Shown here in pieces: positions 1 to 13,212 of a stretch of 13,212 bases of DNA. The first letter of the stretch is position 1, and every line of letters starts with the position of its first letter. The DNA is taken from UHGV virus genome UHGV-0125291; one strand, given 5' to 3'. Position numbers and translations under genes: made by a program. The notes beneath the pieces are model-generated. The model saw only the letters and a program-made list of their open reading frames with translations, did no database searches and was not told the origin of the DNA. This DNA is from a virus.

Positions 1-1
1 T

Positions 2-541
2 GAGCGTCGAAATAAGGGGCGGTCCAGGCCAAAAACCAAAAAGGATCCATTCTTATCGCTTGCGCCGGTAAAAGAAATTTCTCCACATGCGAAGGCACTT
101 GCAGCACTGGCAAAGAACCCAGACCTGCGCGACGGAAATTGCGAGCACTTCGAGCAGGTTTTCATTTTTGATTACTTCGAACGCAAGCACCCTGACATCT
201 ATGAGCTGTTGCATGCAACGCCTAACGGAGGGAAACGTTCAAAAGCAACCGCCGGGAAAATGAAGGCTGAAGGGCAGAAAAAAGGTTATCCGGACATGAG
301 TCTCGATAAAGCATGCGGTATTTATCACGGCATGCGAATTGAGCTTAAAGAACCAAATGGTAAAGCCCCGACGAAAGAGCAGATCGCCTGGATGCGCAGG
401 CTTAGAGAGGAAGGTTACTACGTCGTTCTTGCGTATGGTGCAGAACAAGCGATAACCGCCATCCTGGAATACATAAGCCTTAAAAAGGGTGAGGCTATTG
501 AGCATGTATTGAACGGCGACAAGTGGTTGTATGCTGCTTAA
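2..541 (+). CDS. VRR-NUC-like nuclease domain protein, 5' partial (frame open to the window edge)
   Basis: The reading frame is open from position 2 with no in-frame ATG upstream; the only in-window start is TTG at 209, which lacks a convincing SD. The C-terminal part (GYPDMSL...GMRIELKEPNGKAPTKEQIAWMRRLREEGYYVVLAYG) fits a PD-(D/E)xK / VRR-NUC pattern (PD...ELK). The family call is pattern recognition, not a search. Confidence 0.55.
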   Translation, partial: ERRNKGRSRPKTKKDPFLSLAPVKEISPHAKALAALAKNPDLRDGNCEHFEQVFIFDYFERKHPDIYELLHATPNGGKRSKATAGKMKAEGQKKGYPDMSLDKACGIYHGMRIELKEPNGKAPTKEQIAWMRRLREEGYYVVLAYGAEQAITAILEYISLKKGEAIEHVLNGDKWLYAA

Positions 542-607
542 AATAATAAATTAATTAGTGCATATGTGCTCTTTGATATAGCGCACATTAACATCGGGAG
601 AATAATC

Positions 608-763
608 GTGTCATTCAAGGCTAATTATGAATCGCTGGCATCGATCATGCCGCGTAATGAACAGGAAGCAGATGCTGTAGTGGACCCGGTAATCGCTGAA
701 ATGAATGCTCGCCTGGAGGCTGAATTTGCAGCTGAGAATGAACATACCACCCAGGGCGACTAG
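608..763 (+). CDS. small acidic hypothetical protein (about 51 aa)
   Basis: GTG at 608 lies 7 nt after GGGAG (595-599); the ORF track gives 566..763 from an upstream start without an RBS. The 3' end overlaps the next gene and contains its SD. Confidence 0.3.
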   Translation: MSFKANYESLASIMPRNEQEADAVVDPVIAEMNARLEAEFAAENEHTTQGD

Positions 764-1367
764 GACTGTTTTTTGTGTCGGTAGCGGTCCGTCACTCACT
801 CGTGAGGACTGTGCTGCTATAGAAAAAACTGGCTGTTCAATCATCGCGGTTAACAATTCCTGGCAGATGTTCGATGACATTTATGCCTTATACGCCGGTG
901 ATTTGTCATGGTGGAAGCAATACGGATCCACCATACCGGGAGGGAGATTCCGCAAAGTGACAGCCAACCTGGCGGCGGCGAAATCATTTTCGTTGGAGTA
1001 CAGGCGATATTGTGGACCGGCGGAAGGGGTAAATAGCGGCGCGCAGGCTATCAGTCTGGCTGCTGAATCAGGGGCTGAAGTAGTGGTATTAGTCGGCTAT
1101 GACTGTTCTCTGCAAAACGGCCTTCATTGGCATGGCGCGCGCCCTCAAGCACTACGGAATCCAACGCAGGTGTCTATTTCAAAATGGCAACAGCAGTTCC
1201 TGGATACCCGCAAAAAACACGCAGATTTACATATTTTGAATGCAAGTAGGAGCAGTGCAATTCAATGTTTCCCAAGAATAAATTTAGAGGCAGTGATCGC
1301 GTTATTATCGTCGGCAGTGGCCCAAGCGCCGCAAACTTTGTTGCGCCGCGCGGAGTGCCGATTATAG
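726..1367 (+). CDS. hypothetical protein with N-terminal GxGPS motif (VGSGPS...IIAVN...VLVGYD), paralog A
   Basis: ORF track 705..1367. The preferred start is TTG 726, 6 nt after GGAGG (715-719); ATG 705 and ATG 738 are alternatives. It shares motif order and spacing with the next gene. A possible DUF115/MptE-like Rossmann-fold assignment is weak. Confidence 0.6.
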   Translation: MQLRMNIPPRATRTVFCVGSGPSLTREDCAAIEKTGCSIIAVNNSWQMFDDIYALYAGDLSWWKQYGSTIPGGRFRKVTANLAAAKSFSLEYRRYCGPAEGVNSGAQAISLAAESGAEVVVLVGYDCSLQNGLHWHGARPQALRNPTQVSISKWQQQFLDTRKKHADLHILNASRSSAIQCFPRINLEAVIALLSSAVAQAPQTLLRRAECRL

Positions 1368-1891
1368 CGGTCAATGGGGCCATCGACTGGCTTAACCGCG
1401 CTTCTTATTTTTTCACCCTTGATCCATCGCCAGACAATATGCGGCGCGTTGGTCGTGGCCGCCGTCGCCGTGGTGTTTGTTATTGCATGGCGCTACCCGA
1501 TGTTAAAGAACGTGAGGTCAGAGACGGCGTTCTGTGCTTCCGTCGTGTGGCTGAGCGCGGCACGGAGCCAAAAAATACGAATTCTCCCGAGTGGTGGGCG
1601 TGGCGCTGGTCCGCACATTTCGGACTTTGCGAAGATGAGAATGAAATTGCCAGCGGCAATAGTGCATATGGTGCTCTGAACCTGGCTTTCCATATCGGAT
1701 TCAAACATGTAGCCCTGGTGGGCGTTGACGCTACGCAAGAACCACGCGTTCATTCCGGCGGCACGCCAAAAAATCTAAGTCACCTGCCTTTGTTATTCCA
1801 GTCTGCGCGTGAACAGATTGACGTTGTTTCATGCGGGAAAATGGGAGGTATTCCGCAGATGACTCTTAAAGAATGGCTGAAGAATACATGA
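1265..1891 (+). CDS. hypothetical protein with N-terminal GxGPS motif (IVGSGPS...IIAVN...LVGVD), paralog B
   Basis: ATG 1265 is preceded by AGGAG (1248-1252). It is the only in-frame start before the conserved motif, and it forces a 103-nt out-of-frame overlap with paralog A. The stop TGA 1889-1891 overlaps the ATG of the next gene. Confidence 0.65.
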
Positions 1892-2565
1892 TGGCACCAA
1901 CAATTTATCACCGTATCGACGGTACCAAATACAGGAATATCTGGGTTGTTGGTGATCTGCATGGTTGCTACACCAGACTGATGTCCGAACTCCATCGTGT
2001 GGATTTTGACCCTGCGCAGGATTTACTGATATCGGTCGGCGACCTTATCGATCGCGGCACCGAAAATGTTAAATGCTTGGAGCTATTGCAGATGCCATGG
2101 TTCAGAGCGGTTATGGGCAACCATGAGCGGCTGATGATTGATGCGTTAAGTCCTGATGGCAACGTGAATAATTGGCTAATGAATGGCGGTCAATGGTTCT
2201 TCATGCTGGACGCTGATCAGGAAATATTAGCCAGGGCGCTGGTGGAGTTGGTAAGACGACTGCCCTATATCATTGAGTTGAACACCGGGCAAGAAACTAT
2301 CGTTATAGCCCATGCCGACTATCCGGATAATGAATACCAATTCGGTAAGGAGGTGCCGCTTTTCAACGTTGTCTGGGCGCGCGAGCGTATCAGTGATTCG
2401 ATGGATGATATTGGTGGCGAAATTTCGGGCGCAGATCGTTTTATCTTTGGTCACACTCCGGTGAAAAGCCCGAAGACATTCTGGAATCAGCAGTATATCG
2501 ACACTGGTGCCGTATTTTGCGGAAACCTGACATTGATGAAAGTGAAAGGTGATGGTGCAGCATGA
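1888..2565 (+). CDS. Ser/Thr protein phosphatase, lambda PP (NinI / ORF221) family metallophosphatase
   Basis: Metallophosphatase motifs GDLHGC, GDLIDRG and GNHE are present, and the protein is collinear with lambda phosphatase as recalled. The start at ATG 1888 overlaps the upstream stop (ATGA); ATG 1873 and ATG 1891 are alternatives. P1 carries an equivalent gene (ppp) by memory, so the symbol is left blank. Confidence 0.9.
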
Positions 2566-3263
2566 AGATTGCTTTAGTTTTTCGCTCTGGTGGTGACTAT
2601 AACGCTTCCGATGTGCAGTGGCTGGTTAATCAACTGCCAAAAGGCTATGAAATTATTTGCCTGACAGACCTGAAGCGTTTACATGTACCTGGCGTCAAAG
2701 TTGTCCCATTGATCAACCAGTGGCAAAAGTGCCGTGGCTGGTGGGCGAAAATCGAGTTGTTCCGACCGGATATAACCGATGATCTGTTCTATCTGGATTT
2801 GGACACGGTTATTGCCGGTGATATACGCCCAATCCTTGAGAATCCACCAACCAGCTTCACCATGCTTAGGGATTTTTACCATCCACAATATCGTGGCAGC
2901 GGTGCCCTGTGGATACCAAATAGTGTAAAAGCGCATATCTGGAGTTCATTCTGGCAAGATCCGGAAGGTTGGATTTCTCGTTGTGTCACTACTGAGTGCT
3001 GGGGTGATCAGGGGTTCTTACGGAAGGTTATGGGCGATGATACACCAGCATTTCAGGATCTGTATCCAGGATGGTTTGTAAGTTACAAGGCCGATGTTGT
3101 GGAACCTGGTTCAAAATATGCGAGCGCGCGTTACTCCAGGGGGAATGGGGCATTACCAAAGGACTGCCGAATAATCTTTTTCCACGGCAAACCGCGACCT
3201 CGCGAAGTGTCAGAGGATTGGCTTCCCCTTATCAGCTCGTTTTTTGAGCGAGAATCAGAATAA
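2562..3263 (+). CDS. hypothetical protein with DxD motif ([12 protein letters not shown]), possible GT-A-like glycosyltransferase
   Basis: ATG 2562 overlaps the phosphatase stop (ATGA at 2562-2565), with AAGGTGA upstream. The N-terminal beta-alpha start ([12 protein letters not shown]) followed by DLD resembles nucleotide-sugar transferases. The function is inference only. Confidence 0.6.
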
Positions 3264-3264
3264 T

Positions 3265-3281
3265 ATTGCTCTAATAATTCC
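3265..3281 (+). promoter_or_regulatory. P1 C1-repressor operator-like site (ATTGCTCTAATAATTCC), overlapping a possible -35 (TTGCTC)
   Basis: 14 of 17 positions match the asymmetric P1 C1 operator consensus ATTGCTCTAATAAATTT (recalled from literature). It sits 2 nt after the stop of the upstream gene and is followed at a fixed 19-nt offset by ATTTTTAAAAC, as is the copy at 5406. Confidence 0.5.
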
Positions 3282-3289
3282 ATATTTTT

Positions 3290-3319
3290 AAAACGTGATG
3301 TACACTCATCACGTTTTTT
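3290..3319 (+). terminator. Rho-independent terminator
   Basis: An 11-bp stem AAAACGTGATG / CATCACGTTTT with a 6-nt loop (3301-3306) is followed by a T-run ending at 3319. Confidence 0.6.
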
Positions 3320-3330
3320 ATTAGAGCAAT
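3314..3330 (-). promoter_or_regulatory. second C1 operator-like site, inverted orientation
   Basis: The reverse complement of 3314-3330 is ATTGCTCTAATAAAAAA, a 14/17 match to the consensus. With the site at 3265-3281 it forms a 13-bp inverted repeat enclosing the terminator hairpin. Confidence 0.45.
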
Positions 3331-3344
3331 CTACAAGGTGCACT

Positions 3345-3563
3345 ATGTGGCCATTCCGACGGAAATATCACTACTGGCTGATCGCCTTTGTTACGCCGAC
3401 CGGCGGTATCAGGCATGTCATCACCAGGTATCGCAACAAGAGACTCACCTTAGCCAGAATTTTACAGGCTGCCATAGGTGAGGGACTGGATACAAATTGC
3501 GTAGTCCTTCCTCCTTCATACTTAGGAAAAATGACCGAAGCACAAGCTAATACGGAACTTTGA
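3345..3563 (+). CDS. small hypothetical protein (72 aa)
   Basis: ATG 3345 lies 4 nt after AAGGTG (3335-3340). Its stop TGA 3561-3563 is 1 nt from the next ATG, suggesting coupling. No recognisable motifs. Confidence 0.4.
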   Translation: MWPFRRKYHYWLIAFVTPTGGIRHVITRYRNKRLTLARILQAAIGEGLDTNCVVLPPSYLGKMTEAQANTEL

Positions 3564-3564
3564 A

Positions 3565-4827
3565 ATGAGCACTTCAGCACAAAACCAATCAATCGAAAAT
3601 GTATCTATCCCTGACGTCCTGAATGCCGGTATCCCGGCCATTATCCAGAACATCCGGGCCGCGCAACGCCGCGTTAGTTGTGATGACCTCACAGCGCGTT
3701 TTTTTGATAATGCGGTTCAGTCAGCGGAGATGCTTCACGCACAGCTTATTGATGTTTATAACGCAGAAGCTGATAGCCATAACTCCCTGGTAGATGCAGC
3801 TGAAAATATGCAGTTGGATCTCGGTCTGAAGGGTAAAGAAATTGAAGAGCTTCAGCTGGAAATTGAACATTTGAAACGCCAGCAACAGGACGCGATCGAC
3901 GATGCGACGCATGACGCCAACCAGCGTGCTGATAATGCCGAACGTATAAGCATTGAGCTGGAAACAAAACTCAATGAAATGACCGCGATGGTTGAACTGC
4001 GGAACTCACAGATTTCAACGCTAAAATCTCAATATAAAGAGATCATGAAACTTGATCCTTTTAACCTTGAGAAACGCTATAACAAAGCTAAAAGCGAGCG
4101 ACAGGAACTGCGTAAGCAGGTCGCCGACCTTAACCAACAGCTCAAAAAAACTATTAAAGATGCAAGCGAAGCGCGCGTGGCATTTGCTAATAAAAAAGCA
4201 GAGGTTACCGCGCTGGTTAATGAGAATGCCAAATTTGCGACGCTCAAGAAGGAAATGTATGGCATTACTGAGCGCCGTTTCCCTGCAAGCAAACTTCATC
4301 CGACGTTAGGGCAAATCTCCTTCTTCCCGCGCCTCCTGGCTTATGGGATCTCATCGCCTAAAGAGTTCAATAACGAGCGTCCTTATATCGTTTCTAAGCT
4401 GGACTTTGCTTATCAGTTCTGCTGCGACATGGGCTATGCCATTGATATCCGAATCAACGAATGGTTGATGCCAAACTTCCAGCCGTTGGCAATTTTCCGC
4501 GAGTTCCAGCCGGAAGGTTGGGTAGAGTTCTTCCATGAATTGATCTGTAAAGAGATGGAAAGCCGCCGCCCGGAATTGGTCCGTCGAGTTGAGTGGGCGC
4601 AAGAGGTTATGTTGGCAGATGCAGAGCTGCCGTTCGAACCGGAATTCATTGATGATCTGGCAACTAAAGGGCTGCATACCCTGTTTGATGTGGTTACCCG
4701 CCGTCATGAGCAGTTGGTTGTCGAATTGGGTTTAGAGGAAACTGCGGCAAGAAGACTTCTCGATGTTTGCTATGCACGTAGCGATGCATGGGAAAAAGAG
4801 AACGGCGGCACTATTTACGTTCGCTGA
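3565..4827 (+). CDS. coiled-coil protein of unknown function (420 aa) with a C-terminal globular domain
   Basis: Long ORF. Residues about 80-230 are a heptad-rich charged segment (EIEELQLEIEHLKRQQQ..., ELRKQVADLNQQLKK); the C-terminal roughly 190 aa is aromatic and Cys-containing. No catalytic motif is recognised. Confidence 0.8.
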   Translation: MSTSAQNQSIENVSIPDVLNAGIPAIIQNIRAAQRRVSCDDLTARFFDNAVQSAEMLHAQLIDVYNAEADSHNSLVDAAENMQLDLGLKGKEIEELQLEIEHLKRQQQDAIDDATHDANQRADNAERISIELETKLNEMTAMVELRNSQISTLKSQYKEIMKLDPFNLEKRYNKAKSERQELRKQVADLNQQLKKTIKDASEARVAFANKKAEVTALVNENAKFATLKKEMYGITERRFPASKLHPTLGQISFFPRLLAYGISSPKEFNNERPYIVSKLDFAYQFCCDMGYAIDIRINEWLMPNFQPLAIFREFQPEGWVEFFHELICKEMESRRPELVRRVEWAQEVMLADAELPFEPEFIDDLATKGLHTLFDVVTRRHEQLVVELGLEETAARRLLDVCYARSDAWEKENGGTIYVR

Positions 4828-4847
4828 TAGTTACAGTGTCACTTTTA

Positions 4848-4880
4848 ATGCTGGTGGAGTGCGCCCACCAGCATTTTTTT
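4848..4880 (+). terminator. Rho-independent terminator
   Basis: A 10-bp stem ATGCTGGTGG / CCACCAGCAT with a 7-nt loop is followed by a T7 run (4874-4880), 20 nt after the stop of the 420-aa gene. Confidence 0.7.
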
Positions 4881-4899
4881 CGTCCAATGAGGAGGGCAT

Positions 4900-5406
4900 T
4901 TGAGTATTTTCAATAAACACGCACACCAGGAACGTCCGTACATCGTCATAGTAGATATTGATGGGACGATATCAGAGGCAACGGAAGACAGGCTGCATTT
5001 ACTTCCACCACCTGGCAAAGGTGCATTAACAGAGCACTGGAACGAGTTTAACCTTGCCTGTGACACTGATGCTCCCATCACTCCAGTTATTGATATGGTG
5101 CGCCAGTTGTCCGGCATTTACACCCTCTGGTTTGTAACCGGGCGCTGTGAGATCGCAAGGGATAAAACACGAGCCTGGTTGCGTAAGCACGTAACAAATG
5201 GGGCTGAGCCTTTGCTATCTATGCGTCCTGCCACCGATGACAGAAATGACGGCCCAGCAAAGATTGATCTCCTTAAGAAAATTGGTCTAAGCAAAATTGC
5301 GTTCGCGCTGGAAGATAAGATTGAAGTGGCGCGTGTTTTCAGGAGGCACGGCGTGCTTACGTTAATGGTCAGGGAGTATGAAAACGCGCTTCTCCATCAA
5401 CAATAA
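4900..5406 (+). CDS. HAD-superfamily phosphatase-like protein
   Basis: TTG start at 4900 is 4 nt after AGGAGG (4890-4895). HAD motif I DxDGT is present (VIVDIDGTI), with a downstream Thr (FVTGR), Lys and LEDK consistent with motifs II-IV. Confidence 0.75.
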   Translation: MSIFNKHAHQERPYIVIVDIDGTISEATEDRLHLLPPPGKGALTEHWNEFNLACDTDAPITPVIDMVRQLSGIYTLWFVTGRCEIARDKTRAWLRKHVTNGAEPLLSMRPATDDRNDGPAKIDLLKKIGLSKIAFALEDKIEVARVFRRHGVLTLMVREYENALLHQQ

Positions 5407-5422
5407 TTGCTCTAATAAATCA
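5406..5422 (+). promoter_or_regulatory. third C1 operator-like site (ATTGCTCTAATAAATCA), overlapping a possible -35
   Basis: 15 of 17 positions match the C1 operator consensus. It starts at the last base of the HAD gene stop codon and is followed at the same 19-nt offset by ATTTTTAAAAC (5425-5435). Confidence 0.5.
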
Positions 5423-5455
5423 TGATTTTTAAAACAGAGAAAGTGAAAATAAAAA

Positions 5456-5476
5456 CATGCCGCAAGGCGCGGCATG
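5456..5476 (-). terminator. GC-rich hairpin acting as an intrinsic terminator in the minus orientation
   Basis: An 8-bp stem CATGCCGC / GCGGCATG with a 5-nt loop. On the minus strand it is followed by UUUUUAUUUU (complement of 5441-5455); on the plus strand there is no U-tract, so there it would be a 5'-UTR structure. Confidence 0.4.
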
Positions 5477-5504
5477 TATCCAATCAATCACAGGAGCTGA
5501 AGAT

Positions 5505-5591
5505 ATGAACACGGCATTCAAAATCATTATGACCGCGATCTATTTCTGGCTGTTCTTTATCACTTTTGGCAGCATTGTCGCGCATGGGTAA
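5505..5591 (+). CDS. small hydrophobic peptide (28 aa, MNTAFKIIMTAIYFWLFFITFGSIVAHG), one predicted TM helix
   Basis: ATG 5505 is 8 nt after AGGAG (5492-5496) and the stop is TAA 5589-5591. It is below the 60-aa cutoff of the ORF track. It lies downstream of the operator/promoter module at 5406-5435. Confidence 0.35.
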   Translation: MNTAFKIIMTAIYFWLFFITFGSIVAHG

Positions 5592-5626
5592 GGGGAGTAT
5601 ATTAGCCATTTGGAACCCCACGGTCT

Positions 5627-5654
5627 CTTGCGGGTTTAATTAAGAACCCGCAAG
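5627..5654. other. perfect 10-bp stem-loop (CTTGCGGGTT-8 nt-AACCCGCAAG), not a canonical terminator
   Basis: Located 17 nt from the hsdR stop. The A-run is 3' on the plus strand and the U-run is 5' on the minus strand, so neither orientation gives hairpin plus U-tract. Confidence 0.4.
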
Positions 5655-5670
5655 AAAAACACGAATTGGG

Positions 5671-8600
5671 CTATATTTTTCCGCCTACGCCTTTAAACTT
5701 CTCAATAAACGAGACGATTTTCTGGAAAACTGCCTGTTTTTTCGTTTTATATTGCGGATTTAAAGGACTGAGTCTGGGCAGTGTCTCGTTTAATTCCGTG
5801 CCATTTTCGGTGGCGTATTCGCGTTTTAAAGACGTGCGAATATAGCGTTTCGCCGCCTCTTCATTGAGATTTTCTTCTTTTATCAATGCTTCTGCTTCAC
5901 GTTGCTGTTCGCGTTGAGCAAACGTAAAGAATGCGTCAATGATGCTGGCTTTGTCCGGTAAATCATCCAGGTTCGTTTGCTGAATAAAATCGACCACCAG
6001 GCCCTCTTTAGCACGGTTCCCCAGGCTTGAACGAATTAAGCGTTTGACCTCTTCGATCATTTCGCCCTTGCCTTTATTTTGTCTGTTGTGTTCGAAAATC
6101 AGTCCAAGGATATAATCCAGGTTTATTTCCTGAGACTTCAGCAAATCGACCTCAAAAACTACGTCATCCCAGTCAGTGGTTGATTTCTCTTTTTTCTCAG
6201 CTTCTTTCTCACGGCGCTGCCAGTCGCGAATATCGTTATAGGCAGAACGATAATCCTGAATCTTGCGATCAGCAGGGAGACGAATTGTTTGCAATTCAGC
6301 GAACTTTTCATCATCCACATAATGTTCTGCTTTGAATTTTTCTACCGCAACAGGATCGCTAAGATCGATTTGTTGCAGGGCTTTCAGCGTGGCAAATTCA
6401 TCATAGTTTTGCAGGATGTTCTCGGCACGCAGGTATTCACCAAACAGTTTAACGAAGTCTTTCTTCTCTTTTTCACTTTCAATACTGGTAGGGTCAGGGA
6501 ACCGTTGTTCCAGTTCTGAAACTACTGTCATGAAGCCGCGTTTAGCTTCACCAGTGGCAGCATCAGTAAAGCCTTCCATATACTCTGCATAACTCTTTTC
6601 TAAAACCACATTTTTGGTGTTTTTGTCACCAAACAGCGTTATGGCATCAATAGTTGAGCGTTCCAGATCCCGGAAAGTGACGATATTACCGAAGGTTTTA
6701 GTTGCATCATAAATACGGTTGGTGCGGGAAAATGCCTGCATCAGGCCGTGAAAACGCAAGTTTTTATCGACGAATAGCGTGTTCAATGTTGGAGCATCGA
6801 AGCCGGTTAAAAACATCCCCACGACAATTAACAGATCGATATCCTGATTTTTAACCCGTTGGGCTAAATCGCGATAGTAGTTCTGAAAACCGTTACCGTC
6901 GGTGCTGAAGTTAGTTTTAAAATAGCTGTTATACTCACGAATTGCAGCGTCAAGAAACTCTTTAGCACTGCTGTCCATTGCGCTGGTATCAAAAGTTTCA
7001 TCGGAAATTTCACCAATGGCATTTTGTTCTTCATTGGCGGCAAAGGAGAAGATTGTCGCAACACGCAGCGGTTTATAGGTAGCCGATTTATTAGCTGCTT
7101 CCTCTTGTAACCGTTTAAACGTCGCATAATAGGCTTTCGCGGCATCCACGCTGCTCACTGCCAACATAGCATTAAAACCTTTTGAGCCAGGGAAGGTACG
7201 GTGAGTTTTCTGGCGGAAATTATTCAGAATATATTGCGTGATTTCCTGAATACGCATGGGATGAAGAAACGCCTGCTGATTTTCAGCCGCACTTAGTTTT
7301 TTCTCGTCAGTTTCTGTCTCTAAAGACTTAAACTGTGGCCGCACATCGTTGTAGTCCACCTTGAATTTGAGCACTTTTTCGTCACGAATCGCATCGGTAA
7401 TTACATACGAATGCAATTCACGACCAAATACGCTGGCGGTTGTTTCTGAGCCTAAGGCGTTTTCCGGGAAAATAGGGGTGCCGGTAAAACCAAACTGATA
7501 ATAGCGTTTGAATTTCTTCTTCAGGTTTTTCTGCGCTTCTCCAAACTGGCTGCGGTGGCATTCATCAAATATAAACACCACTTGCTGATTGTATACAGGC
7601 AGGTCGCTTTCTGCTTTCATCAGGTTATTGAGTTTCTGAATAGTAGTGACGATAATTTTGTTATCGTCCTTATCCAGATTTCGTTTAAGGCCTGCGGTAT
7701 TTTCCGAGCCGTTGACGCTGTCTGGCGAAAAACGCTGATATTCCTTCATGGTCTGGTAATCGAGGTCTTTCCTGTCGACCACAAAGAAGACTTTATCAAT
7801 AAAGTCCAGCTCTGTTGCCAGACGCGCGGCTTTAAAGCTGGTGAGGGTTTTACCAGAACCGGTAGTGTGCCAGATATACCCACCGCTTTCCGGTTTTGAC
7901 CAGTTCTTCGCTGTAAAGGAACTCTTAATTTTCCACAGAATGCGCTCGGTGGCGGCAATCTGGTACGGTCGCATCACCAGTAGCGTCTGACTACTGTCAA
8001 AAACGCTGTAGTTCACCAGAACATTCAGCAGAGTATGTTTCTGGAAAAAGGTAGCGGTAAAGTCTTTGAGGTCTTTAATCAGCGTGTTGTCTGATTTCGC
8101 CCAGTTCATGGTGAAGTCAAAACTGTTTTTATCGCGCTTTGTCGTGTTGGCAAAATAACGGGTATCGGTGCCGTTAGAAATGACAAACAGTTGCAGATAC
8201 TTAAACAGGGAATTTTCGCTGTTAAAACTCTCTTTACTGTAACGATGTATCTGGTTGAAAGCCTCACGAATCGCCACCCCGCGTTTTTTTAGTTCGATTT
8301 GCACCAGCGGTAAACCATTAACCAGGATCGTGACGTCATAACGGTTAGCATGAGAACCCGTCTGTTCAAACTGCTGGATAATCTGCACCTTATTGCGCAT
8401 GAGATTCTTTTTATCTATCAAATAGATGTTCTCAAGTCGCCCGTCGTCAAAAATAAAGTCGCAGATATAGTCGATATGGATTTTACGGGTCTTATCCAGA
8501 ATGCCATCGCTGGGGTTGTCCAGATACTGCTCCGTGAAGCGCCGCCACTCGCTGTCATTAAACATCACACCATTGAGGCTCTGAAGCTGTTCCCGAACAT

Positions 8601-8787
8601 TAGACAGCATTGCCGACTGTGATTTTACGGAAATAAATTCATAACCCTGATTCCGCAGGTCCTGAATCAGTTCACGTTCCAGGTCCGATTCGCTCTGGTA
8701 GCTGTCGCTTGTTTGCTCAGCTTTGATGTACTTATCAAGGACGATAAAGTTATTGGATTCAGCAATGGTGTGTGTTTGATGAGTCAT
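5671..8787 (-). CDS. hsdR: Type I restriction enzyme R subunit (HsdR), EcoR124 (Type IC) family
   Basis: 1038 aa. Walker A ([11 protein letters not shown]) and a DEAD-box-like motif (FDECH) are present. The N-terminus [24 protein letters not shown] matches EcoR124I HsdR as recalled. RBS AAGGA lies 5 nt before the ATG. Confidence 0.95.
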
Positions 8788-8908
8788 AGCGCATCCTTTG
8801 TGCCGCCTGGCAAGGGCCGGAAAGGCGTTAAGAGTGACTTCCGGCGCGTAAAAAATAGTCTATATACTGACCGGATGTTAAGGAGGCCCGGTCGGTAGCA
8901 ATGGTCAA

Positions 8909-10143
<1,235 letters not shown>

Positions 10144-10147
<4 letters not shown>

Positions 10148-11706
10148 GATTGCGCCTCGTCACCTTCAATCTTTGCCACAATTGCATCAATATCTTTACG
10201 CAACTGGTCGATTTTGCTGACCGTGGTTTTCAGCTCAGCATTCAGCTCACCGATATCGATAATTTCGCGGTTATCTTTCGCTTCCACATAGCTGCTCACC
10301 GACAGGTTATAGTCATTCGCGACAACAGTCTCAAACGTGACAGATTTTGCCAGATGAGCAACATCTTCCTTGCTGGCAAATACCTGCATAATCTGTTCGA
10401 TATGGGCATCGGTCAGGATATTGTTGTTGGTCTCTTTTTTGAACAGTTCGCTGGCGTCAATAAACTGAACGTTGGTATCCGTTTTATGTTTAGACAGAAC
10501 CAGAATGTTTACGGCAATGGTGGTGCCAAAGAACAGGTTCGGTGCCAGTGAAATCACGGTTTCGACATAGTTATTGTCGACCAGATACTGACGGATTTTC
10601 TGCTCCGCGCCGCCACGGTAAAAAATACCCGGGAAGCAGACAATCGCAGCACGACCTTTGGCCGAAAGATAGTTCAGCGCATGTAATACAAACGCAAAGT
10701 CAGCTTTGGATTTGGGGGCCAGAACGCCAGCCGGGGCAAAACGCTCATCGTTAATCAGCGTCGGGTCATCGCTGCCAATCCATTTCACCGAATACGGCGG
10801 GTTAGAAACGATGGCATCAAACGGTTTTTCATCTCTGAAGTGCGGCTCAGTCAGCGTATTGCCCAGCTTGATATCAAACTTGTCGTAGTTGATGTTGTGC
10901 AAAAACATGTTCATACGCGCCAGGTTATAGGTCGTATGGTTGATTTCCTGACCAAAAAAACCTTCTTCGATGATATGGTTATCAAACTGTTTTTTCGCCT
11001 GCAACAACAGTGAGCCGGAACCCGCTGCCGGGTCGTAGATTTTGTTAACGCTGGTCTGCCCGTGCATAGCCAGTTGTGCAATCAGCTTGGAGACGTGCTG
11101 CGGTGTAAAGAACTCGCCGCCTGACTTACCAGCATTCGCCGCATAGTTAGAAATCAGGAACTCATAGGCATCACCGAACAGGTCAATCTGATGTTCGTTG
11201 AAGTCACCAAGTTTTAACCCTTCAACCCCTTTCAGAACCGCAGCCAGGCGGGCATTTTTATCTTTAACGGTGTTACCCAGGCGGTTACTGGTGGTATCGA
11301 AATCAGCAAACAAACCTTTGATGTCAGCTTCTGAAGGGTAACCGTAAGCAGAACTTTCGATAGCAACGAAGATGCTGTTTAAATCTGCATTCAGTCTGTC
11401 ATTGGTATTTGCTTTCGCAGCTACGTTGCAGAAAAGCTGACTGGGGTAGATGAAGTAGCCTTTAGTTTTGATGGCATCGTCTTTAATGTCATCAGTAATT
11501 ACGCTGTCATCCAGTTTCGCATAACAGATACTGTCATCACCGGCTTCAATATAACTGGAAAAATTTTCGCTGATAAAACGGTAGAAAAGCGCGCCCAGAA
11601 CGTATTGCTTAAAATCCCATCCATCGACCGAACCCCTGACATCGTTAGCAATTTGCCAGATTTGACGATGAAGCTCTGCACGTTGTTGAATACTTGTCAT
11701 TTTCAT
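10144..11706 (-). CDS. hsdM: Type I R-M DNA methyltransferase subunit (HsdM), N6-adenine
   Basis: 520 aa. The AdoMet motif ([10 protein letters not shown]) and the catalytic NPPY motif (SNPPYS) are present. A second Met 2 codons in (ATG 11698-11700) is an alternative start. Confidence 0.95.
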
Positions 11707-11845
11707 CCACTTATTTCAGGCTTATGTAATTGGCGGTGATTCTACAGCAACTTGGATGCTTTAGCAGTTCGGACATTAGGCTACGAATGACCTGCCTAGA
11801 GGTTTGTTAAGCCGCAAAGTGCTGGTGCTTTATGCCTGTGAAGTT

Positions 11846-12695: not shown

Positions 12696-13163
12696 GTGAA
12701 AGCCGTAATTACTCCCTTTGTACAGAAAGAGCTTGGCCTCGCCACGTTCAAAGTGGATCAGGAGGTCCGAAAGCTGGTGGAGGCTGGCCGTAAATTTATT
12801 ATGGAGCCGGTGCCGCGTGAGTTAATCGAGCACATGGAAGACGGCCTCGTTGTTACCGAGCAAACCATGGCAACAAATGAGGCGTTGCAGCCGTTTTTTA
12901 ACAGCGATGAACTGTTTCGCCGTATTGGTGGAATTGACGCGCTGGTGGCGTGGTTGCGCAGGAAAGAGGGGCAATGCCAGGCCGCAGATCGTAGCTGGTG
13001 TGACAACCATATTGTCCACGCAGAACGAGACAATAGCGCGGTGTTGTTGTGCTGGCATCACGATAACCATTACCGGATGCGTGGTTTTAATGAGCTGAAA
13101 GAAACGCTGCATAATAATCGCGTTAACTGGATACTGGATGTCGCCCGTCAGGAAATGGGGTAA
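12696..13163 (+). CDS. Cys/His-rich hypothetical protein (155 aa), in the position of P1 pdcB
   Basis: GTG 12696 is preceded by AAAGGTG. The C-terminal half carries C-x7-C-x3-H-x3-H...C-x-H-H, a possible metal-binding cluster. Function unknown. Confidence 0.6.
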
Positions 13164-13212
13164 TGACTCCAACTTACTGATAGTGTTTTATGTTCAGATA
13201 ATGCCCGATGAC

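Follow-up and report, generated by a model that had tools for sequence, protein, structure and literature searches.

Repeats matching catalogued P1 C1 operators enclose a conserved plus-strand RNA hairpin upstream of pmgR in P1-type DNA

Three exact copies of a 13-mer in the window (the whole 13,212-nucleotide stretch of UHGV virus genome UHGV-0125291 analysed here) are, with very high probability, parts of the catalogued P1 C1 operators Op86a, Op86b and Op88, carried on a P1-type phage-plasmid. The inverted pair, Op86a and Op86b, encloses an RNA hairpin with a U-tract that is conserved specifically on the plus strand and is most likely a rightward intrinsic terminator. Judged by its sequence, the window is a P1-type phage-plasmid: positions 1-5595 are collinear with phage P1 (AF234172) at 98.2% identity. 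The C1 gene of P1-type elements (c1) lies outside the 13.2-kb window; C1 shows 99.3% identity in phi456, the closest full-length relative, and 76% amino-acid identity in Cronobacter phage JK004. The operators themselves are already known, the P1/P7 C1 regulon having been catalogued by Lobocka et al. 2004, and their importance beyond correct annotation is low. What the analysis adds to the database record is limited to two points: the hairpin covaries in a strand-specific way, and the module is preserved in lineages about 25% diverged. These could help in dissecting P1 early/late transcription or in engineering P1-based vectors. The operators, the genes recorded as being under their control and the elements between them are as follows.

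548-564, minus strand: C1 operator Oppp (former Op83), TATGCACTAATTAATTT; AF234172 79435-79451, minus strand
3265-3281, plus strand: C1 operator OpmgRa (former Op86a), ATTGCTCTAATAATTCC; identical to AF234172 82152-82168, a protein_bind feature for 'phage repressor C1'
3284-3294, plus strand: first copy of the 11-mer ATTTTTAAAAC, holding the predicted PpmgR -10, TAAAAC (3289-3294)
3290-3321, plus strand: RNA hairpin and U-tract, assigned from folding and covariation; probable rightward intrinsic terminator
3314-3330, minus strand: C1 operator OpmgRb (former Op86b), ATTGCTCTAATAAAAAA; identical to AF234172 82201-82217, minus strand
3345-3563, plus strand: pmgR, under Op86a/b control according to the P1 record; named shtA in P7
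3565-4827, plus strand: pmgS, under Op86a/b control according to the P1 record; named shtB in P7
5406-5422, plus strand: C1 operator OpmgT (former Op88), ATTGCTCTAATAAATCA; AF234172 84293-84309
5425-5435, plus strand: second copy of ATTTTTAAAAC, holding the predicted P2pmgT -10 (5430-5435)

The first-pass annotation of this DNA had noticed three copies of the 13-mer, two of them as an inverted pair, and had compared the surrounding 17-mers with a C1 operator consensus. The copies of ATTGCTCTAATAA lie exactly where they were reported, at 3265-3277 (plus), 3318-3330 (minus) and 5406-5418 (plus), and 200 dinucleotide-preserving shuffles contained no exact copy (0 mismatches; mean 0.00, maximum 0). 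The 17-mers, claimed to agree with the consensus ATTGCTCTAATAAATTT at 14-15 positions, agree at 14/17 (3265-3281), 14/17 (3314-3330, minus) and 15/17 (5406-5422). That consensus is itself correct: taking the majority base over the 20 C1 operator sites annotated in AF234172 gives an identical sequence, and the same string is quoted verbatim in PMC8546580, which credits Lobocka 2004. The first-pass annotation had also proposed a matrix scan from the published P1 operators. We built the weight matrix from 16 P1 operators of AF234172, leaving out Op83, Op86a, Op86b and Op88. With this matrix Op86a scores 21.0, Op86b 19.9 and Op88 23.2 bits, Op88 being the top site of the window, against 10.4 bits for the next best non-operator site in the window and a mean shuffle maximum of 11.2; all three fall within the 15.1-27.6 bits spanned by accepted monovalent P1 operators. 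The matrix also picked up a fourth operator, Oppp/Op83 (19.3 bits), that was absent from the earlier list.

Because these sites coincide exactly with sites annotated in the P1 record, their identity as operators is known P1 biology. The P1 sites OpmgRa, OpmgRb and OpmgT (AF234172 / NC_005856) share position, orientation, sequence and flanking genes (pmgQ / pmgR-pmgS; pap) with those of the window. Op86a and Op86b are identical to their P1 counterparts, Op88 matches at 16/17 through a single T to A change at position 17, and Op83 differs at position 1. In phage P7 (AF503408) the same operator pair is recorded as Op(sht[a]) / Op(sht[b]), controlling shtA-shtB; its 111-bp module is identical to that of the window, and only the gene names differ. 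The name Op88 goes back to Citron et al. 1989, as cited in PMC1934351. Op86b lies inverted relative to Op86a, 4 bp upstream of the pmgR ribosome-binding site, and Op88 overlaps the pap stop codon by a single base, its first A. The note attached to OpmgRa in AF234172 reads 'controls expression of pmgR and pmgS'. The earlier proposal that the downstream genes sit in operator-promoter units under immunity control agrees base for base with this curated annotation, in which the promoters are predicted. By the same annotation, the four C1 operators Op83, Op86a, Op86b and Op88 are taken to organise the rightward morphogenesis operons of the window. Neither pmgR nor pmgS matched a Pfam family; pmgR is essential according to a deletion survey, as cited in PMC10695390.

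Inverted C1 sites occur elsewhere in P1, in the bivalent operators Op72ab (ban) and Op99ab (c1), which likewise comprise two oppositely oriented C1 sites and in which the TTGCTC of Op72a serves as a -35. In these, however, the 17-mers overlap by 6 bp within 28 bp in total, whereas Op86a and Op86b are 32 bp apart, with centres 49 bp apart, and enclose the hairpin. A bivalent operator was therefore rejected for Op86a/b, the spacing being wrong for the 6-bp overlap; the P1 record annotates them as two monovalent operators.

The 11-mer that the first-pass annotation described at equal offset from both plus-strand operators is indeed shared, ATTTTTAAAAC beginning at +19 from each. It is explained by the predicted promoters of the P1 record, PpmgR and P2pmgT, since the -10 TAAAAC forms its 3' end; the -35 of both, TTGCTC, lies within the operator (3266-3271 for PpmgR, in Op86a). 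The layout of TTGCTC, 17 bp and TAAAAC thus seen at Op86a recurs at Op88, and TTGCTC is also the -35 of P1ban, which is recorded as a sigma-70 promoter with no 'predicted' qualifier. The predicted promoters overlap the operators, but their -10 is a weak one that JK004 and Salmonella conserve poorly: TAAAAC has no conserved final T, and it becomes TGAAGC in JK004 and TAGGTA at the Salmonella Op88 unit. Because of this missing T, a generic promoter scan called neither PpmgR nor P2pmgT. The last five bases of the first ATTTTTAAAAC copy form the start of the hairpin's 5' arm, and an alternative -10-like hexamer, TAATAT (3261-3266), also kept in JK004, overlaps Op86a at its 5' edge. We found no mapping of P1 transcription start sites or terminators, and no 3'-end or Term-seq data, in the accessible literature, and a P1vir RNA-seq paper reports nothing on pmgR or pmgS.

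Between the two inverted operators, positions 3290-3317 fold into an 11-bp stem with a 6-nt loop (3301-3306) at -13.4 kcal/mol (z = -5.0). None of 200 shuffles was as stable, and the hairpin proposed for this interval in the first-pass annotation is accordingly real. Its 7-bp core containing G+C accounts for -8.5 kcal/mol of about -13 for the full stem, which is followed by UUUUUUAUU; if the A.U pairs are discounted, the tract after the hairpin reads TTTTTTATT. Read on the other strand, this U-tract supplies the atypical AAAAA at the 3' end of Op86b. Since the A-tract of the hairpin base-pairs with some of the T-run, a simple terminator scan overlooked 3290-3317, and an Rfam scan of the whole window returned zero families.

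Comparison of five sequences from three lineages indicates on which strand this structure has been kept. All 11 stem pairs are paired in 100% of cells, against 42-57% in slid controls. Six pairs are invariant, two carry double changes, one from G-C to A-U and the other from A-U to G-C, and three have changed on one side, to G.U only. A covariation score as high or higher arose in 11/500 shuffles, a figure to be read in the light of only three independent lineages. The stem holds five G.U wobbles that are workable only in plus-strand RNA. The plus-strand hairpin keeps a free energy of -12.3 to -13.5 kcal/mol in every variant; the minus-strand version reaches only -4.4 kcal/mol in Escherichia albertii and -5.8 kcal/mol in JK004, since each plus-strand G.U is an A.C mismatch on the opposite strand. 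This asymmetry implies that the selected object is the plus-strand RNA hairpin, neither a DNA cruciform nor a leftward terminator; both a cruciform and a minus-strand hairpin were ruled out as candidates by the wobbles. Two features expected of an intrinsic terminator are thus present, a stable hairpin with a U-rich tract on the transcribed strand and compensatory change on the sense strand (in only three independent lineages). As modelled, the hairpin is most likely a rightward intrinsic terminator that would close the pmgN-pmgO-pmgP-ppp-pmgQ unit.

The module of Op86a, hairpin and Op86b is present in 20 phage and 687 plasmid records, nearly all at 95% identity or above, and the informative diverged sources number three: Escherichia albertii p2RM9974 (94%), Cronobacter phage JK004 (73%) and Salmonella plasmids (about 75% to JK004). 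All three keep both operator cores whole and have no indel between the operators, while the flanks fall to 60-64% identity. Even in the lineages that are only about 73-75% identical (JK004 and the Salmonella plasmids), the cores are nearly invariant and the spacing between the operators is kept; in JK004, Op86a is conserved at 15/17 positions and Op86b at 16/17, against about 64% in the flank. Repressor and operators are conserved together, since JK004 encodes the C1 homologue noted above. An operator of Op88 type also follows directly after the pap homologue in JK004. In Salmonella an Op88-type operator unit lies 66 bp after the pmgS homologue, and no pap CDS is annotated there.

These elements suggest a mechanism in which, in the lysogen, monomeric C1, aided by its corepressor Lxc, would occupy each asymmetric 17-bp site. 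At Op86a it would cover the PpmgR -35 (TTGCTC) and so keep RNA polymerase off the pmgR-pmgS morphogenesis operon. Op86b, about 13-29 bp downstream of the expected start and 4 bp before the pmgR ribosome-binding site, may act as a second lock or roadblock against initiation or read-through, and Op88 would play the part of Op86a for the next rightward unit. The plus-strand hairpin and its U-tract would end transcripts arriving from ppp-pmgQ, the operon upstream. Should the predicted -10 (3289-3294) be used, transcription would start near 3301, inside the hairpin loop, so that the pmgR-pmgS transcript would carry no 5' arm and would escape the terminator. C1 binding at these copies, the exact start, the efficiency of termination and the roadblock role of Op86b are points that we infer. 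We put forward, tentatively, the possibility that the module is a compact insulator, a promoter nested in a terminator: within 66 bp it would end the upstream operon and start the next transcript in the loop, with a repressor site on each side, an arrangement that would be conserved in P1-like phages of Escherichia, Salmonella and Cronobacter.

The position of the start is what separates this nested arrangement from a second, unlikely reading, in which the sites are C1 operators and the hairpin is an attenuator in the pmgR-pmgS leader. Transcription would then begin upstream of 3290, for instance from TAATAT, with the whole hairpin in every pmgR transcript, whose continuation would depend on read-through or antitermination. 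Of the conserved -10 bases TAATAT has T1, A2 and T6, and it persists in JK004, in which the annotated TAAAAC, already weak, has become TGAAGC, and every lineage keeps the hairpin and its U-tract. However, the stretch 16-18 bp upstream of TAATAT offers no acceptable -35. TTGCTC is the -35 of P1ban, a sigma-70 promoter listed without the 'predicted' label, and the TTGCTC-17 bp-TAAAAC arrangement is repeated at Op88. A constitutive leader terminator also fits poorly with pmgR being essential, as cited in PMC10695390.

It is considerably less probable that the inverted pair is itself structural, whether as a long RNA stem that might serve as, say, an RNase III site or anti-terminator, as a DNA cruciform, or as anchors of a DNA loop held by C1-C1 contacts. 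An 86-nt RNA does form an extended stem (-26.9 kcal/mol, z = -7.7), but any inverted pair of identical operators is necessarily self-complementary. The first-pass annotation had suggested such an alternative operator-operator stem, and this part of it finds no support: in the outer 13-bp stem 12 of the 13 pairs are invariant, and the only deviations in the thirteenth are unpaired cells; covariation that would indicate structure is therefore absent, and the invariance is already explained by C1 binding. A long RNA stem is further opposed by the order of events, as termination would precede transcription of the 3' operator. Selection for a cruciform or a minus-strand structure is excluded by the G.U-only substitutions in the inner stem. 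Looping by C1 at the c1 operators was reportedly described by Heinzel et al. in 1994, which would favour a loop; a centre-to-centre spacing of 49 bp (about 4.7 helical turns) is nevertheless short for one mediated by protein.

That the matches are chance similarity or the leftover inverted repeats of a small mobile element is scarcely credible: the region is AT-rich, and with 2 mismatches permitted 2/200 shuffles reach at least three ATTGCTCTAATAA matches, but exact matches are absent from all 200, the sites are identical to curated operators, they recur at the same gene junctions in three diverged lineages that retain C1, and neither target-site duplications nor variable presence or absence is seen, so that the shuffles and the conservation effectively refute both ideas.

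To the right of Op88 the window departs from P1, at 5596. A minus-strand type IC hsdR-hsdS-hsdM locus (5596-11800) stands in place of the P1 pmgT-humD block, which is a known variable region of P1-like phage-plasmids (PMC9603915), and phd-doc follows. The features of this region are given below.

5455-5591, plus strand: leader hairpin (5455-5477), invariant CAATCAATCA (5480-5489), ribosome-binding site and 28-aa ORF (5505-5591)
5671-8787, minus strand: HsdR, with an EcoR124_C domain
8909-10147, minus strand: HsdS, type I restriction-modification locus
10144-11706, minus strand: HsdM, type I restriction-modification locus

Compared with P1, the unit downstream of Op88 is therefore truncated, pmgT-pmgU-pmgV...humD having been exchanged for the opposite-strand hsd genes, and transcription from the Op88 promoter would cover only the leader of hairpin, CAATCAATCA and ORF (5455-5591) before running into the 3' end of hsdR. 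The P1-hsd junction occurs in 258 plasmid records. Other type IC hsd loci, EcoR124 and EcoDXXI, are flanked by P1 DNA, and the hsd locus of the window likewise lies between the Op88 leader and phd-doc, precisely the place for which the P1 record remarks on homology with the flanks of EcoDXXI and R124/3. A P1-flanked type IC hsd arrangement of this kind is previously described, and ours matches that of Tyndall et al. 1997 (Mol Microbiol 23:729), as cited.

Several features of this leader deserve mention. A GC-rich hairpin, at 5455-5477 in the window, precedes the small ORF in each of the three lineages, and its stem sequence differs completely from one lineage to the next. In the P1 lineage the leader hairpin with TTTTATTTTC also reads as a minus-strand terminator and could end leftward hsdR transcripts. 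The ORF, 5505-5591 (plus), encodes the 28-aa hydrophobic peptide MNTAFKIIMTAIYFWLFFITFGSIVAHG behind a GGAG ribosome-binding site, directly downstream of the Op88 promoter, and is unannotated in AF234172; in the comparison loci it lies at 6006-6092 in L001 and begins at 4476 in L009 and at 5401 in L006. The Salmonella and Cronobacter lineages preserve roughly its first 22 residues, so the ORF is probably a genuine gene for a small membrane protein and the first of the Op88 unit. The C1-controlled Op88 promoter faces the 3' end of hsdR in convergent orientation, and no canonical plus-strand terminator lies between them; prophage induction might therefore yield RNA antisense to hsdR.

Further observations concern the operators more generally. 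The region around Oppp/Op83 (537-564) is identical at 22/28 positions to the bivalent c1 operator Op99ab; a weak second half-site at 537-553 (plus; 10.4 bits) overlaps Op83 by 6 bp, which is the P1 bivalent geometry, and the record calls Oppp monovalent. C1 operators start 0-4 bp from the preceding stop codon at pmgQ/Op86a and pap/Op88 (window 3261-3265 and 5404-5406) and at repL/Op55 and pdcB/Op94 (AF234172 51571/51575 and 89902/89904). This repeated placement suggests a recurrent layout in P1, with the operator at the operon boundary. Omat (Op2b; AF234172 2628-2645) is annotated as 18 nt and opposite to the strand that matches the consensus; in operator sense it is the reverse complement, CATGCACTAATAAATAT.

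Between pmgS and pap a strong intrinsic terminator at 4847-4875 (plus strand), with an 11-bp stem, 6 G-C pairs and TTTTTT, separates pap from the Op86-controlled operon. The window ends, at 13159-13212, in what we take to be an IS1 terminal inverted repeat (GGTAATGACTCCAACTTACTGATAGTG...). This element cuts pdcB to 155 codons, and the same 54 bp occur twice in the phi456 locus, in opposite orientations, one copy lying at the edge of an annotated InsB gene.
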